Assembly (NCBI GenBank): GCA_964356815.1
Contig: CAYHIR010000005.1
Location: 1-48,513, forward strand
Direction: 5' to 3'
Source: an uncultured Candidatus Saccharibacteria bacterium
GTDB taxonomy: Bacteria > Patescibacteriota > Minisyncoccia > Phycocordibacterales > DATGWK01
Length of the DNA stretch: 48,513 nucleotides
Notes under the pieces: model-generated
What the model was told of the DNA's origin: nothing
The model's database searches: none
The model's input: the letters and a program-made list of their open reading frames with translations, nothing else
Program-made: the position numbers and the translations under genes
Shown: positions 4,436 through 21,168 of the stretch, piece by piece
Numbering within the stretch: the stretch's first letter is position 1
How the letters are laid out: every line of letters begins with the position of its first letter

Positions 4436-5413
4436 TTAGATAAAACCCAATTCATTTATCAATTTATAAGTATTCCCATGCAATAAAAGACCTTTATAAG
4501 AAGCGATGCTTCCCGGTGACTGGTTTTTACTAATATTTTTTATCATTCTTCGCTCAGTCACTTTCCTGACAATTTTATGATCAGAGAAATGCACCCAGCC
4601 AAGAAAATCAACGCCCGAAGAAAAAGTCTTTACAAAAACTTTATCAGGATGAAGTGATAATTTTAAATTTTTTTCTAAAAATTCAGCGATTTTGGGAATC
4701 ATGTTAAGTAAGTGATTCCGATCTTGGTCGAGAATTACAAAATCGTCGGCGTAACGAATATAATATTTTGCTTTTATTTTATGCTTCATGAACTGATCAA
4801 ATTCATTCATGTAAATATTTACAAAAAGCTGTGATGTGAGATTGCCAAGAGGTAGACCAACACCTGGGCGTGTGGAATAAAAACTTCCAATAATTTCTGA
4901 CAAAAGTTTTAATACATTTTTATCCGAAATATACAGGCCAAGAATTTTTAGAAGAGTTATTTGATCTATTGATGCAAAAAATTTGCGAATATCGCATTTC
5001 AAAACCCAAACAGTTTTTGTGTGATTTTTGGATGCCTCAAAAGCAAAAGATTTGAATCGCGCCATCGCTTTATGCGTGCCTTTATTTAATCGACAAGAAT
5101 AAGAGTCAGGTGCGAATGTTTTATCGAAAAAAGTATAAAGTTTTCTGTAAATAGCGTGATGTAATAATCTATCTCTCACACTTGCCTTGTGAATCTCGTG
5201 AAATTTTGGATCGAAAATGGTAAACGGTTTATAAAAAGAGTGAGTGTATGTTTTTGCAACCAAGTCTCTATGAAGCAACATCATATTGCCCATAAGATTT
5301 CGCCCAAATTCTTGCACATCTTTTCGGTTGCGTTTACCATTTACAAATTCACCCCACGCTTCGAGAAGATTCTCGATGGAGATGATATCCTTATATTTCA
5401 GTTCGAAATGCAT
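4436..5413 (-). CDS. DGR reverse transcriptase
   Basis: GLPLGNLTSQLF (GxxxSQ motif), YIRYADDF catalytic motif, RDRLLHHA, KCDIRKFFASID; 325 aa with no maturase or endonuclease domain; next to TR. Confidence 0.95.
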   Translation of the reverse strand: MHFELKYKDIISIENLLEAWGEFVNGKRNRKDVQEFGRNLMGNMMLLHRDLVAKTYTHSFYKPFTIFDPKFHEIHKASVRDRLLHHAIYRKLYTFFDKTFAPDSYSCRLNKGTHKAMARFKSFAFEASKNHTKTVWVLKCDIRKFFASIDQITLLKILGLYISDKNVLKLLSEIIGSFYSTRPGVGLPLGNLTSQLFVNIYMNEFDQFMKHKIKAKYYIRYADDFVILDQDRNHLLNMIPKIAEFLEKNLKLSLHPDKVFVKTFSSGVDFLGWVHFSDHKIVRKVTERRMIKNISKNQSPGSIASYKGLLLHGNTYKLINELGFI

Positions 5414-5453
5414 TTAGTAAAATATTACAACACAAAAAATAAAACCATGAATA

Positions 5454-5462
5454 CCCCCCCCC
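5454..5462 (+). repeat. C9 homopolymer between ATG 5447 and the avd reading frame
   Basis: ATG AAT A CCCCCCCCC GCAAAATTACTCCCA TTG. There are 25 nt between AAT and the avd-frame TTG, so removing one C restores the frame. Confidence 0.85.
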
Positions 5463-5477
5463 GCAAAATTACTCCCA

Positions 5478-5837
5478 TTGTTGCAAAAAATGAAAGAGGT
5501 TTATTTAATCTGGTATAGCTATTATCAAATTCTACCAAAAACACATCGTCACTCGCTTGGTCAAAAAATCGACACTTTATTTGTAGAAATTATTGAAGCA
5601 ATCGCTGTTGCAAGTTTTTTAAATCGCGAAGAAAAACATCCGTGGGTCCGACTCGCAATCCGCAAATTGGATGCTCTAAAAGTATTGCTCATGGTTCTAT
5701 GGGAAACAAAATCGCTTGATAATAAAAAATATATTGCTTTATCACTAAAAATTGATGAGATTGGTCGAATGCTCGGCGGATGGAATGGACAACTAGTAAA
5801 ACAAAACTCCCCCGCCACAAAGACGGAGGAGAAATGA
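5478..5837 (+). CDS. avd: DGR accessory variability determinant (Avd)-like four-helix-bundle protein
   Basis: About 120 aa, helical; LPKTHRHSLGQKIDTLF and EIGRMLGGW motifs typical of Avd; lies between RT and TR. The native start may be ATG 5447 (see findings). Confidence 0.85.
   Translation: MLQKMKEVYLIWYSYYQILPKTHRHSLGQKIDTLFVEIIEAIAVASFLNREEKHPWVRLAIRKLDALKVLLMVLWETKSLDNKKYIALSLKIDEIGRMLGGWNGQLVKQNSPATKTEEK
5798..5831 (-). terminator. GC-rich hairpin plus U tract 3' of TR, embedded antisense in the avd 3' end
   Basis: Minus strand CUCCUCCGUC-UUUGU-GGCGGGGGAG then UUUUGUUUU: a 10-bp stem with two G-U pairs that would be C-A mismatches on the plus strand. Confidence 0.65.
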
Positions 5838-5842
5838 AATGA

Positions 5843-5980
5843 TTTGCGACGGACAAACACGAAACGGTTGTCAGCATTCCAGACATTGTCAGGGTTGCCG
5901 TTGTTAGCGTTGAGCCACAGCTCATCGTTGTCGTGTTCGATGCTGAACACGTTGAGGTTGCCGTTCGAGTCCGTTATATA
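5843..5980 (-). repeat. DGR template repeat (TR)
   Basis: 138-nt ungapped match to 6372-6509; 20 mismatches, all at TR adenines; 11 AAY codons in the target frame. Confidence 0.95.
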
Positions 5981-6215
5981 TAGAGCGCCATCCATGCCAC
6001 CACCCAGCGTGAAAGCTTTTGGCTGATCTTCTGGGTTGTATCGTATTCGGTATCTTAAATACCCTAGCGCTCCATACCAAGTATTTTCATTTTTTATGAA
6101 GTTCTACATAAGCCCTCCGTCCGAAACCGTAATCGCGGACGCTCTCAGCTTATGGATACTGGATTCGGTAGCGAGAAACCTTGATCTCCCGCGCATTCAC
6201 CTACTACCACTTTTT

Positions 6216-6242
6216 ATTTTATCAAATTATAAAAAATGTAAA
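6216..6242 (-). promoter_or_regulatory. Candidate promoter for the TR RNA
   Basis: TTTACA-N15-TAAAAT with TG-A extended -10, immediately after the target-gene terminator. Confidence 0.4.
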
Positions 6243-6268
6243 AGAAAAACCCCGAGCAATGCCCGAGG
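6241..6268 (-). terminator. Intrinsic terminator of the DGR target gene
   Basis: CCUCGGGC-AUU-GCUCGGGG (8 bp with 2 G-U) followed by UUUUUCUUU. Confidence 0.6.
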
Positions 6269-6293
6269 CTGAAGTTTTTCACTACTTCAAAGT

Positions 6294-6363
6294 GTTGCGA
6301 CAAAATTGTCGCGAACTAAGGACTAAGGTCAAAGGATCCAAAAGATCCGAGTGACAAAGTCCT
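6294..6363. other. Stem-loops immediately downstream of VR/IMH (candidate retrohoming hairpin/cruciform)
   Basis: Nested AGGACT/AGTCCT (6319-6324/6358-6363) enclosing GGATC-CAAAA-GATCC (6334-6348), plus GCGACAA-AA-TTGTCGC (6297-6312). The position matches the hairpin required downstream of IMH in characterised DGRs. Confidence 0.6.
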
Positions 6364-6368
6364 AAGCA

Positions 6369-7163
6369 CTACTTGCGACGGACAAACACGAAACGGTCGT
6401 CAGCATCCCAGACATCGCCAGGGTCGCCGTCGTGAGCGCCGAGCCACAGCTCACCGTCGTCGTGCTCGATGCCGAACACGCTGAGGTCGCCGTGCGAGTC
6501 CGCGATAGACTCCGTGGCAATGATGAGCCACTCACCTTTGGGCTGGTCGGTGTACTGCAGGCGCAGTTGCGGGCCAACCTCGTTGGGACAAAGCTCGAGA
6601 CCAAGTTCCTGTGCCTTTGCACAGATTTGGTCGTACCTAGCTCCGTCCTTGAAGCCGAGTTCGGCCACTGACAGGTTGACCAGGTTGACTTCTTGCTCGG
6701 TCTCGCTCGCGGTAAACGCGGGCTTGCCGAGGATGTCGTTCGCCCAGTCGCCGACTTTCATTCCCGCCGCCTTGATGGCAGTGCGAAAACCTGCGGCATC
6801 CTTGATGCCAGTGCCGAGCTTGAGGGTCTTCCAGACCTTCATCGTCGATGGCATCTTTGGGAATGCCCTGTCGAGCAGACCCTTGAGTTCCAAGAGTCGC
6901 TCATAAAGCATCCCGTGCCACGAAACGTGACCCGTCTGACGTTCGGCGAGAAGCGCAAGCGGTCGCTTGAGGGCTTCCTCGAGTTTATCGAGACTGCCGC
7001 TCTTCGCGTCGTTCTTGGTAGCGAGAGTCGTGGTTGCCACGATGACTTCATCGCGAAGCACCTCTCTCACCCTTTCCTCACCGCCGACCTTCTTGACCAG
7101 GGCATTCAATTCGCCACCAGTCAGGTTGGCTATCGCAAAACGCTCTTTCGTTGCAGTCGTCAT
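6369..7163 (-). CDS. DGR target protein with C-terminal variable region (probable C-type-lectin-fold domain)
   Basis: VR encodes the last ~46 aa ending RFVFVRRK; AAGGAG RBS; no signal peptide or TM segment visible. The CLec fold is inferred from DGR precedent. Confidence 0.9.
   Translation of the reverse strand: MTTATKERFAIANLTGGELNALVKKVGGEERVREVLRDEVIVATTTLATKNDAKSGSLDKLEEALKRPLALLAERQTGHVSWHGMLYERLLELKGLLDRAFPKMPSTMKVWKTLKLGTGIKDAAGFRTAIKAAGMKVGDWANDILGKPAFTASETEQEVNLVNLSVAELGFKDGARYDQICAKAQELGLELCPNEVGPQLRLQYTDQPKGEWLIIATESIADSHGDLSVFGIEHDDGELWLGAHDGDPGDVWDADDRFVFVRRK
6372..6509 (-). repeat. DGR variable repeat (VR)
   Basis: Differs from TR by 16 A>G and 4 A>C; ends at the target stop codon after the A-free run CGTTTCGTGTTTGTCCGTCGC shared with TR. 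Confidence 0.95.
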
Positions 7164-7367: not shown

Positions 7368-7802
7368 TTAAACAAACTCTTCAAAACATCTCCTCGTCGC
7401 TGGCCAAATGAGCATTTTTTCCATGTCGGATTTTGTAAACCAACCATGATCGGCAATTTCGCTGTCGTTCATGCGCACTCGGCCGGAAGAAATTTCGCAT
7501 AGCCACCAGTGCGTCGTCTGATCCCCCACATCGCCCGGCGTTTCGGCAATTTTTCGCGTTGGACGCACGAGCACATCGAGCTCTTCTTTCATTTCGCGCA
7601 CGAGCGCCGTTTTTTCATCTTCCCCATTTTCCAAATGCCCGCCCGGCGGATACCAATAGCCCGTAAATCGCCCAAAATCTTTTTTCGATTTTATTAAAAG
7701 AAATTTTTCGACGCTCGCCCTCGCGGCGGCGACAGCGTATGCGCCTCTGCCGGCGCCACTTTTAGCTTTTTTAGAAATTATGCCAACGACGACGTGTTTC
7801 AT
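7368..7802 (-). CDS. NUDIX hydrolase
   Basis: Nudix box GGHLENGEDEKTALVREMKEELDV. Confidence 0.9.
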   Translation of the reverse strand: MKHVVVGIISKKAKSGAGRGAYAVAAARASVEKFLLIKSKKDFGRFTGYWYPPGGHLENGEDEKTALVREMKEELDVLVRPTRKIAETPGDVGDQTTHWWLCEISSGRVRMNDSEIADHGWFTKSDMEKMLIWPATRRCFEEFV

Positions 7803-19420: not shown

Positions 19421-21168
19421 CGAGGAGAATAAATTAGCAGATCACCGAAATCGGCTTTTTTTTCAAGAAATGCATACTGATCCAACTTCCACAAGGGATC
19501 ATTTTTTTTATCCCAAACAATGTATTCAACTTCATATGTCGACAGAGTATTTTGTAACCATACAGAGGTTGGAACCGAGAGAGTGGTTTTGTAAAGATCG
19601 ATAATTTTTTGTATTTCTTCATCCGGGATTGCTTCGTAAGAACCGAGGAGCTCTCGGTAATGTATAACGTACACGCTTGCAGAAATAAATCCACGTTCGG
19701 CAAAAAATACACCATCAGCGTCCTCGCCCACTCCTCTTAAACGATAAAAAGTAAACAAAACATCGAGCAAACGTGACTTGGTGGCAGCAAGAGAGTAACC
19801 GGCAGCTCGATGGTAAAAAAGATTCAATGGAGTGTAAATAGCCGTCAGGTGAGAAATTTCGTCCGTGGCTAAAACCACAGATTCCTTTTCAGCATATTGA
19901 TTCAACCAGTCCATAACGGTGCCATATCTCTGCCTTTCGATTGCAACTTCTCCACCGTCACGAGTGTCATTAAAATATGAAGATACTTGGATAAATACTG
20001 CCGTACCGACACTCGCCGTGATTATCAGAATCGCAAAAATCTTTTTTGTAAAAAGCATTCGACGTTTTGTTAAAAAATAGAAAACTACTATTAGCACAAA
20101 AATTATTCCGATCGGCTTGTGAAAAAACCAATGATAATGAGCCTCTTGGAGAATCTTGCCAGTCAAAATTTGCTGGTTCAATGTGAGAAATGGCGCGAGT
20201 AATAAACTTAAACCAAAAAAATATTTTTCTCTATCTTCTCTTGGAAATCCAGCAAAAAAAACGATCAGTGCAGCAATTACCGCCATTCCCACGAATACTA
20301 AATCATGATTAAAAACAATGCCTGACCGAATACTCGCCTCTTCATATACAGGATGAGATGTAACTCTATATAGATTAATAACATATGGGATTGCAACAAC
20401 TAGAGCACCAACATACACTGCGGCAATCATTCCAACATCTCGCCATTTTTTTTGAATGATAAGCAACAAACCTAGAATAGCCCCGAACGCATATAGATAT
20501 GTCCAAGAATAAAAATAGTTATAGAAATTTAAGCCCAAAAGTACCGCACTTGCGATTCCATATCTCCAGTCTCTGTTTCGATAAAAAATCCAGAAGGTCA
20601 CAAGAAACGCGAAAAGAAAAATATAAATCATGGCTGGATTGACTGGCCTAGCTAATCGCAAAAAACTATCGGGGCTTAATCCGTGAAAAATTCTCAACAG
20701 TCCCGATAAACTTAAGACTGAGTCAGCAAGTAAAAGTACGGCGGCCGCAGAAAGAGCGGTAAGGCGCTCCCGAGAGAGCAGAAAAATAAAAGTGTAGATT
20801 AAAATAAAAGTAACAAAAGGAAGAACAATTCGGGACAATAATATTGTGTCGTTTATATCAAGTGAGAGAGCTTGACCCATATATGCCACAACCATAGATC
20901 CAAGGGGCTGAAAAAGATACGGATTATCTTTTCCATCTTTATAGTAAATACTGCCAAAATTTGGATGACCGTCCTGAACCTCTCTGACACGAGCAGACCA
21001 CGGAGAATCTGGTAGAAGCTCTACACCTCGATATATATCATGGTGATCAGATCGGAAATAAATTTGTGGGAAAATGGTTATTATGGAAACAAGAAACGCA
21101 AAAATGAACGCGATTTTATGTTCTTTTAAAATTTGTCCGAGTTTTAGCATATAAAATATTCTAATCAA
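19417..21168 (-). CDS. Polytopic membrane protein, possible GT-C glycosyltransferase
   Basis: Many TM helices with an early loop and a C-terminal YIVWD-type motif; located in the glycan locus. Confidence 0.55.
   Translation of the reverse strand: MIRIFYMLKLGQILKEHKIAFIFAFLVSIITIFPQIYFRSDHHDIYRGVELLPDSPWSARVREVQDGHPNFGSIYYKDGKDNPYLFQPLGSMVVAYMGQALSLDINDTILLSRIVLPFVTFILIYTFIFLLSRERLTALSAAAVLLLADSVLSLSGLLRIFHGLSPDSFLRLARPVNPAMIYIFLFAFLVTFWIFYRNRDWRYGIASAVLLGLNFYNYFYSWTYLYAFGAILGLLLIIQKKWRDVGMIAAVYVGALVVAIPYVINLYRVTSHPVYEEASIRSGIVFNHDLVFVGMAVIAALIVFFAGFPREDREKYFFGLSLLLAPFLTLNQQILTGKILQEAHYHWFFHKPIGIIFVLIVVFYFLTKRRMLFTKKIFAILIITASVGTAVFIQVSSYFNDTRDGGEVAIERQRYGTVMDWLNQYAEKESVVLATDEISHLTAIYTPLNLFYHRAAGYSLAATKSRLLDVLFTFYRLRGVGEDADGVFFAERGFISASVYVIHYRELLGSYEAIPDEEIQKIIDLYKTTLSVPTSVWLQNTLSTYEVEYIVWDKKNDPLWKLDQYAFLEKKADFGDLLIYSPR

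Follow-up and report, generated by a model that had tools for sequence, protein, structure and literature searches.

A run of nine cytosines at the 5′ end of avd, an accessory gene of a diversity-generating retroelement (DGR) in the stretch of DNA that we analysed (48,513 nucleotides in full, referred to here as the window), is probably one copy of a conserved, slippage-prone repeat that lies between the start codon or codons of avd and the body of the gene, where it acts as a stochastic on/off gate on mutagenesis. The repeat occurs in the inverted-avd type of DGR, which is common in the Patescibacteria (the Candidate Phyla Radiation, CPR).

The window contains a complete DGR, consisting of a reverse transcriptase gene, avd, a template repeat, a variable repeat and a target gene, with the RT, the body of Avd and the target all intact. 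The DGR reverse transcriptase (RT; 4436..5413, minus strand; RVT_1, 2.4e-21) adjoins a template repeat (TR; 5844..5978, minus strand), a 135-nt repeat that is 87% identical to the variable repeat (VR; 6373..6507, minus strand). The VR lies at the 3′ end of the target ORF (7163..6369, minus strand; 264 aa) and ends at the target stop. Within the 135-nt repeat, all 18 mismatches between TR and VR (18/18) fall on TR adenines; together, an RT next to a TR/VR pair, differences restricted to adenines and a VR at the 3′ end of the target assign the element to the DGRs. Since the TR-VR differences lie purely at adenines, the DGR of this strain was active in the past. The Avd reading frame (5451..5837, plus strand, frame 0; 128 codons and a stop; bAvd, 7.9e-14) is inverted and stands head to head with RT, the two genes being divergent and overlapping at their 5′ ends. 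This inverted, head-to-head organisation of avd corresponds to the B3 architecture, which makes up 90% of the CPR set (PMC5758913).

Two further features were observed around the TR. Directly after it, inside the last avd codons, lies a terminator-like hairpin followed by TTTTGTTTTA (5807..5831, minus strand; 10 pairs, including 7 GC). If the TR RNA ends at this hairpin, as it may, RT would need a promoter of its own inside the antisense strand of avd; a scan of positions 5250–6300 found no sigma-70-like promoter. On the other side of the TR, the non-coding stretch 6103–6208 (minus strand), between the target stop and the TR, shows ~85–90% identity to many contigs from other organisms in the same metagenomes, and the summed depth over it rises from a baseline of ~40 to ~260. 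The stretch has the look of an RNA element that many CPR DGRs conserve on the 5′ side of the TR.

The tract itself, C9 on the plus strand (5454..5462) and G9 on the RT strand, encodes PPP in the Avd frame and is the proposed hypermutable repeat. Two candidate start codons precede it, both in frame 2: ATG 5447 (5447..5449, plus strand), 7 nt before the tract, and ATG 5408 (5408..5410, plus strand), which abuts the RT start codon on the other strand (ATGCAT). With nine cytosines, ATG 5447 opens a dead-end ORF of 23 codons (5447..5518, plus strand; ATG AAT ACC CCC CCC CGC ... GTA TAG), which yields MNTPPRKITPIVAKNERGLFNLV followed by the stop. Frame 0, which is that of Avd, opens at 5451 (I PPP AKLLPLLQKMKEV...); just upstream of the tract it is closed by a TGA (5448..5450, plus strand), and between this TGA and the tract it contains no ATG, GTG or TTG. 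Ten cytosines would lead into frame 1, in which TAA 5440 is a stop and no ATG is available. Because TGA 5448 closes frame 0 and TAA 5440 closes frame 1, Avd can be reached from a start codon only with C8, C11 and so on, each of which would connect both ATG 5447 and ATG 5408 to the gene. Sequence and frames thus confirm the original prediction, made from the letters of the DNA, that C9 places avd out of frame with ATG 5447, leaving a 23-aa dead-end peptide, and that C8 or C11 would read into the full Avd; ATG 5408 is now added as a start in the same frame.

ATG 5408 deserves attention as a start. It lies 46 nt before the tract, and the conserved avd ATG of related loci is found 37–49 nt before theirs, making ATG 5408 a candidate start at the family's conserved avd ATG position, so that ATG 5447 need not be considered alone. 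On our reading of the alignment, the conserved avd ATG of the relatives is antisense to a His codon of the RT N-terminus. Starts of the CCATGAATAC type also occur in frame in relatives, as in L070 (MNTTPPPRMLP) and P0059 (MNTTPPQKMLP).

Starts downstream of the tract are the ones used in existing annotations. Initiation at TTG 5478 gives the 119-aa form present in NCBI (P0176), and gene finders call a 115-aa ORF beginning at ATG 5490 (P0001; 5490..5837, plus strand); gene callers thus truncate or misplace avd at such tracts, giving 115 or 119 aa in place of ~130–141 aa. It had been pointed out that TTG 5478 and ATG 5490 have no visible Shine-Dalgarno (SD) motif, and the genome is indeed SD-poor; yet this provides no argument against the two codons, as an SD-like motif stands in the 20 nt upstream of only 3 of the window's 34 long ORFs. 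Many ORFs carry a TAnAAT box 6–10 nt before their ATG, for example RT at 5413 and the ORFs at 21150, 29546 and 38418, which suggests that the source organism makes leaderless mRNAs or mRNAs with very short leaders.

Several properties of the tract set it apart within the window. Its unit is not a multiple of three, it lies near the 5′ end of an ORF, and it is at least seven G/C residues long, the combination by which contingency loci are recognised. It is the sole run of at least six C or G in the 48.5 kb. Among the proline codons of the window CCC is the rarest (14%), and CCC-CCC occurs in none of the 18 Pro-Pro pairs. Since 6 of 100 dinucleotide-preserving shuffles of the window also contain a C9, the excess over chance is marginal when the window is taken alone; the matter was settled by comparative data.

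For this comparison we assembled 77 analysable loci, namely 76 species representatives (one per species) and the window, anchored on the conserved Avd motif. The relatives are almost all Patescibacteria, from groundwater and lakes. A simple repeat was present at the homologous site in 69 of the 77 loci (~90%), 1–9 nt before the conserved [KR][LI]LP[LV]LQK motif and always downstream of the avd ATG or ATGs. Most of these repeats are poly-C tracts of 6–13 residues (59 of 69), the remainder being seven tetranucleotide repeats (units CAAT, CAAC, GAAC, CAGC and CAGT), two dinucleotide repeats (CA and GA) and one heptanucleotide repeat. Only units of 1, 2, 4 and 7 nucleotides are therefore represented, and none of the 69 repeats at the site has a unit of 3 or 6. 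Runs of at least seven G or C occurred 57 times at the homologous site and not once elsewhere in 427,897 bases of the related loci.

The phases of these repeats are equally informative. An upstream ATG is in frame with Avd in 32 of the 69 loci, a shift of +1 is needed in 23 and of −1 in 12, and two have ATGs in both other frames. In-frame lengths are modestly enriched over the one third expected (p = 0.03), and both in-frame (32) and out-of-frame (37) lengths are found at homologous loci, with close relatives differing in phase. In 54 of the 69 loci the upstream ATGs occupy a single frame, while 15 have ATGs in more than one (13 in two frames, 2 in three). All eight loci lacking a repeat (8/8, with L075 read by eye) are in frame with the conserved upstream ATG. 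Taken at the level of sequence, the repeat at this site bears the signature of a contingency locus, unlike a chance proline-rich linker.

Conservation on the far side of the repeat indicates how it is translated. In the homologues, the conserved Avd N-terminus, PP(P)x[KR][LI]LP[LV]LQK, runs through the tract; from the LLPLL motif onward, entropy at the three codon positions is 0.91, 0.48 and 1.38, P9 is invariant, and L8 and L11 are kept in at least 90% of the sequences. No conserved start codon was found in the relatives between the tract and the conserved tryptophan, and the position of Met-14 of the window (ATG 5490) is occupied by M, L, I, V or T. As conserved coding sequence follows right after the tract and no downstream start is conserved, translation must come through the repeat.

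The predicted structure of Avd agrees with its family assignment and places the tract in a permissive part of the protein. The match to bAvd (PF22296) scores 52.1–52.5 bits against a cut-off of 40, and AlphaFold2, run on a 55-sequence alignment, predicts four long helices (residues 9–26, 36–55, 59–85 and 91–119) at a pLDDT of 89.6. A Foldseek search with this model matched BPP-1 Avd (4dwl; TM 0.91, rmsd 1.5 Å); a sequence search of the PDB with the family profile gave no match. In the model, residues 1–4 (I-PPP) lie in a disordered tail and helix 1 begins at the invariant P9 (5475–5477). Such a tail can accommodate PP, PPP or PPPP, and likewise the peptides read from tetranucleotide repeats. 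Initiation at ATG 5490, giving the 115-aa form, removes P9, L8, L11 and the first five residues of helix 1.

Changes in tract length were seen directly in related organisms. Within an Avd cluster (at least 90% identity), identical 123-aa bodies carry N-termini that imply tracts from C6 to C12. The DNA of this related lineage confirms it: contigs from different samples with 0–3 mismatches in 650 nt of flanking sequence read C8, C9, C10 or C11, and one further contig reads C6. Because C8–C11 occur between near-identical flanks, the tract at the avd site of this lineage changes far faster than point substitutions accumulate.

In this lineage (L009, L010 and L087–L099), ATGs are present in all three frames before the tract (ATGACC...TATGAATGTTA-Cn), and each length from C6 to C12 gives Avd, with a leader of MTLKNTTYECY-, MNVT- or ML-; here the repeat swaps leaders and does not switch avd off. 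We also observed a foreign contig, from another organism (X4, X6 and X7), that matches positions 5420–5462 with 4 mismatches, over the 27 nt that lead up to ATG 5447, then ATGAATA, then the poly-C. This contig continues with GCTACTACCAAAACCGCTCCCAGTGATA, which is not Avd; in X4 its tract is C11, with an open frame (MNTPPPATTKTAPSD), and in X6 and X7 it is C9, with a stop after 13 codons. It looks like a second poly-C locus with a common leader and a length that differs between samples; a search of genome contigs for it gave no match.

Evidence on the strain itself comes from assembled contigs, which drop rare variants. Logan contigs of X1–X4, X7 and X8 (six runs from two studies) have exactly C9, as do the ENA assemblies Hain_H41_01um_R1 and Hain_H41_02um_R3. 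Because every spanning contig, from six runs and two ENA assemblies, reads C9, the tract is not an assembly error. Among these spanning contigs no length variant of the strain's own tract was present, and a scan of metagenome contigs allowing a variable gap between exact flanks returned only the known C9 contig. In the remaining two of the eight runs, X5 and X6, contigs break at the tract, with abnormal junctions (a 9-nt overlap, or a gap, in place of the usual 27–30). The breaks fit length heterogeneity, but they can also arise from k-mers shared across the tract with a relative, seen in X6, or from poor coverage next to the homopolymer, with low depth beside the tract seen in X5, and we do not count them as evidence.

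The VR of the strain was likewise constant. At full depth, the main contigs of X1–X6 all carry the same VR, with 0 differences, although contigs would hide rare variants, and no ongoing diversification of the VR in the population was seen in these main contigs. An unchanged VR together with a C9 consensus in every sample fits an OFF or low state in most cells, although it does not prove one. Separately, 12 substitutions and 2 indels distinguish the strain in X5 from the window; they cluster within ~80 nt (7442–7525) of a 144-aa ORF (7802..7368), and the 2.8 kb around them are identical. These differences may represent a small recombination tract.

These results bear on several points raised by the original prediction. 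An assembly error, with C8 as the true length, had been named as a refutation of the idea, and this test failed to refute it, all contigs that span the tract reading C9. The suggested alignment of homologues turned out in favour of the idea, with a conserved N-terminus running through the tract, a poly-C or another frame-shifting repeat retained, and no consensus for a downstream start. Tract length was expected to vary in and out of frame, and it does so, both among the 69 repeat loci (32 in, 37 out) and as C8–C11 between near-identical flanks in the related lineage. The proposal that this assembly represents the OFF or low state is in line with the VR being unchanged in six runs.

If the tract is a switch on avd, it would work as follows. 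Slipped-strand mispairing during replication would gain or lose repeat units, and a single phase out of three (here C8, C11 and so on) would join ATG 5408 and ATG 5447 to Avd, with the remaining phases ending as a short peptide (23 aa for C9). Avd, in its family a pentamer that binds RT, would be needed for cDNA synthesis by the DGR reverse transcriptase, as is established for BPP-1; PMC6182149 reports this requirement for the BPP-1 DGR, and given such a requirement the tract would gate mutagenesis. In this way the targeted hypermutation of the target gene (7163..6369) would be under a heritable, reversible and stochastic gate. The sampled population of the strain is in the out-of-frame state, which would be OFF, or low through leak. 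We infer that slippage occurs at a useful rate in this strain, and that an out-of-frame tract leaves too little Avd for retrohoming. Several observations count against a strict switch: the spanning contigs showed no length variant of the strain's own tract; TTG 5478, TTG 5481, ATG 5490 or the near-cognate ATA 5451 could still yield some Avd; where ATGs occupy two or three frames (15 of 69 loci), a change in the tract alters the leader peptide but leaves the gene on; and in-frame lengths exceed one third only modestly.

The strongest alternative, which we regard as possible yet unlikely, is that Avd is produced whatever the length of the hypermutable tract, which would then tune the level of Avd or its leader with no on/off effect. 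Avd could leak through +1 ribosomal slippage on CCC-C, RNA polymerase slippage on C9, or initiation at ATA 5451, TTG 5478 or ATG 5490. Work on tRNA-Pro m1G37 and EF-P has shown that ribosomes are prone to shift by +1 at CCC-C close to a start codon. Such a shift is exactly what the C9 state requires; it has two CCC-C sites, one directly after the other, near its start, and a +1 slip here (reading ATG AAT ACC CCC, then passing over one C to CCC GCA) gives exactly MNTPPAKLLPLLQK.... Loci that need +1 outnumber those that need −1 by 23 to 12 (p = 0.09), and an ATG-C10 arrangement needing +1 is common to four species (L037, L046, L054 and L071). Also consistent with leak are the 15 of 69 loci with ATGs in several frames, the stability of the C9 consensus across samples of two studies, and the fact that SD-independent initiation is the rule in this genome.

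Against this, all three phases occur (12 loci require −1), and no single out-of-frame arrangement is conserved, as it would have to be for a programmed frameshift; moreover, the slippery CCC-C codon is missing from the tetra-, di- and heptanucleotide repeats. The internal Met is unconserved, a start there costs the protein the invariant P9 and five residues of helix 1, and the VR remained unchanged in six runs. The occurrence of three phases, and of repeats that lack CCC-C, also leads us not to favour a programmed +1 ribosomal frameshift as the designed mechanism. The original prediction had offered a phase-variable switch or a +1-frameshift switch, and only the first half of this pair is supported; as a source of leak from the C9 state, +1 ribosomal frameshifting is plausible.

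A second alternative, improbable in our judgement, is that the repeat acts at the level of transcription or RNA, its length altering promoter geometry or the 5′ leader of RT, and not the frame of avd; such an effect would amount to phase-variable transcription, as at other divergent promoters. The divergent arrangement of RT and avd with overlapping 5′ ends is compatible with this, as is the position of the tract in ~60 related loci, where the RT ATG lies 9–42 nt (mode 14) on the RT side of it, and the foreign contig that shares 27 nt, the ATG and the poly-C suggests a portable promoter-start module. Nevertheless, the tract is always downstream of the avd ATG or ATGs and is followed, after 1–9 nt, by a protein-coding pattern of substitution, and repeats of 47–72 nt (L025, L063, L065 and L067) are hard to fit to promoter spacing. 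The absence of units of 3 and 6 is explained only by an effect on reading frame, every repeat-less locus is in frame, and the scan of 5250–6300 revealed no sigma-70-like promoter.

Gating of the RT reading frame by the tract was considered as well and rejected for the window. An in-frame TAA precedes the RT ATG, leaving the tract 41–49 nt upstream, in the RT leader and outside the RT ORF, and most relatives likewise have their RT ATG to the RT side of it. In the L003–L080 loci the poly-G, as the tract reads on the RT strand, is found most often 13 nt before the RT ATG, compared with 40 nt in the window, and in those loci it could double as an SD-like element (GGGGG) for RT.

That C9 is a homopolymer error, or avd a broken gene in a dying DGR, is very improbable: homopolymers are error-prone, contigs break at the tract in two of eight runs and the VR shows no visible diversification, but C9 is identical in six runs from two studies and in two ENA assemblies, the RT, the Avd body and the target are intact with all TR-VR differences at adenines, and the repeat is kept across dozens of species.

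A repeat switch on avd, the reading that we prefer, has close parallels in intragenic contingency loci, such as the poly-G/C tracts of Campylobacter jejuni, Helicobacter and Neisseria and the tetranucleotide repeats of Haemophilus influenzae. There too, a repeat whose unit is not a multiple of three lies just after the start codon and sets the frame by its length, ON and OFF lengths are found among close relatives, G/C homopolymers are otherwise avoided, and different lineages have different repeat units at the same position. In contrast to those loci, the gated gene here is no surface or modification gene but the accessory protein of a second, programmed hypermutation system, and the hosts of the candidate switch are uncultured Patescibacteria. 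Phasevarions and mutator switches (repeat-controlled DNA methyltransferases and mismatch-repair repeats) are similar in that a hypermutable repeat controls many phenotypes or the supply of mutations, whereas the effect here would be confined to one VR of one target through adenine mutagenesis, and would be neither genome-wide nor regulatory.

The DGR of the window shares with that of BPP-1 (4dwl; RNP structures 8ub7 and others) the Avd fold, the RT, adenine-specific TR-VR differences and a C-terminal VR. Its avd differs in being inverted and head to head with RT. We know of no repeat tract at the 5′ end of the BPP-1 avd. Spontaneous or programmed +1 frameshifting at CCC-C (tRNA-Pro slippage and prfB-type sites) resembles the C9 state, which needs exactly +1 and has CCC-C at ORF positions 4–5, but the loci described here lack both a conserved out-of-frame arrangement and a stimulatory element.

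In the full-text literature that we searched, no paper connects DGRs to contingency repeats, to homopolymers or to avd phase variation, and neither PMC5758913 nor PMC8144416 mentions contingency repeats in DGRs. What we propose as new is the application of contingency-repeat phase variation, itself known, to the helper gene of a programmed hypermutation system. Beyond the single window, we lean slightly towards the view that, in a large clade of Patescibacteria DGRs, a contingency repeat in the avd leader enables adenine mutagenesis in a minority of cells and keeps the target frozen in all others, that the consensus is out of frame in about half of the species sampled, and that in the present groundwater strain the OFF allele C9 and a frozen VR persist across samples.

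Such a switch could be of use in two ways: the phase of the tract could predict DGR activity in metagenomes, and engineered DGR systems could borrow the avd leader as an adjustable switch for mutagenesis. Surveys have found that many DGRs look inactive in nature, and to our knowledge the control of DGR activity is largely unknown; if the switch is real, a built-in stochastic gate would explain these inactive-looking DGRs. Most cells would then keep a proven variant of the target and a few would diversify it, limiting the cost of mutating a working gene, which would amount to bet-hedging layered on bet-hedging.
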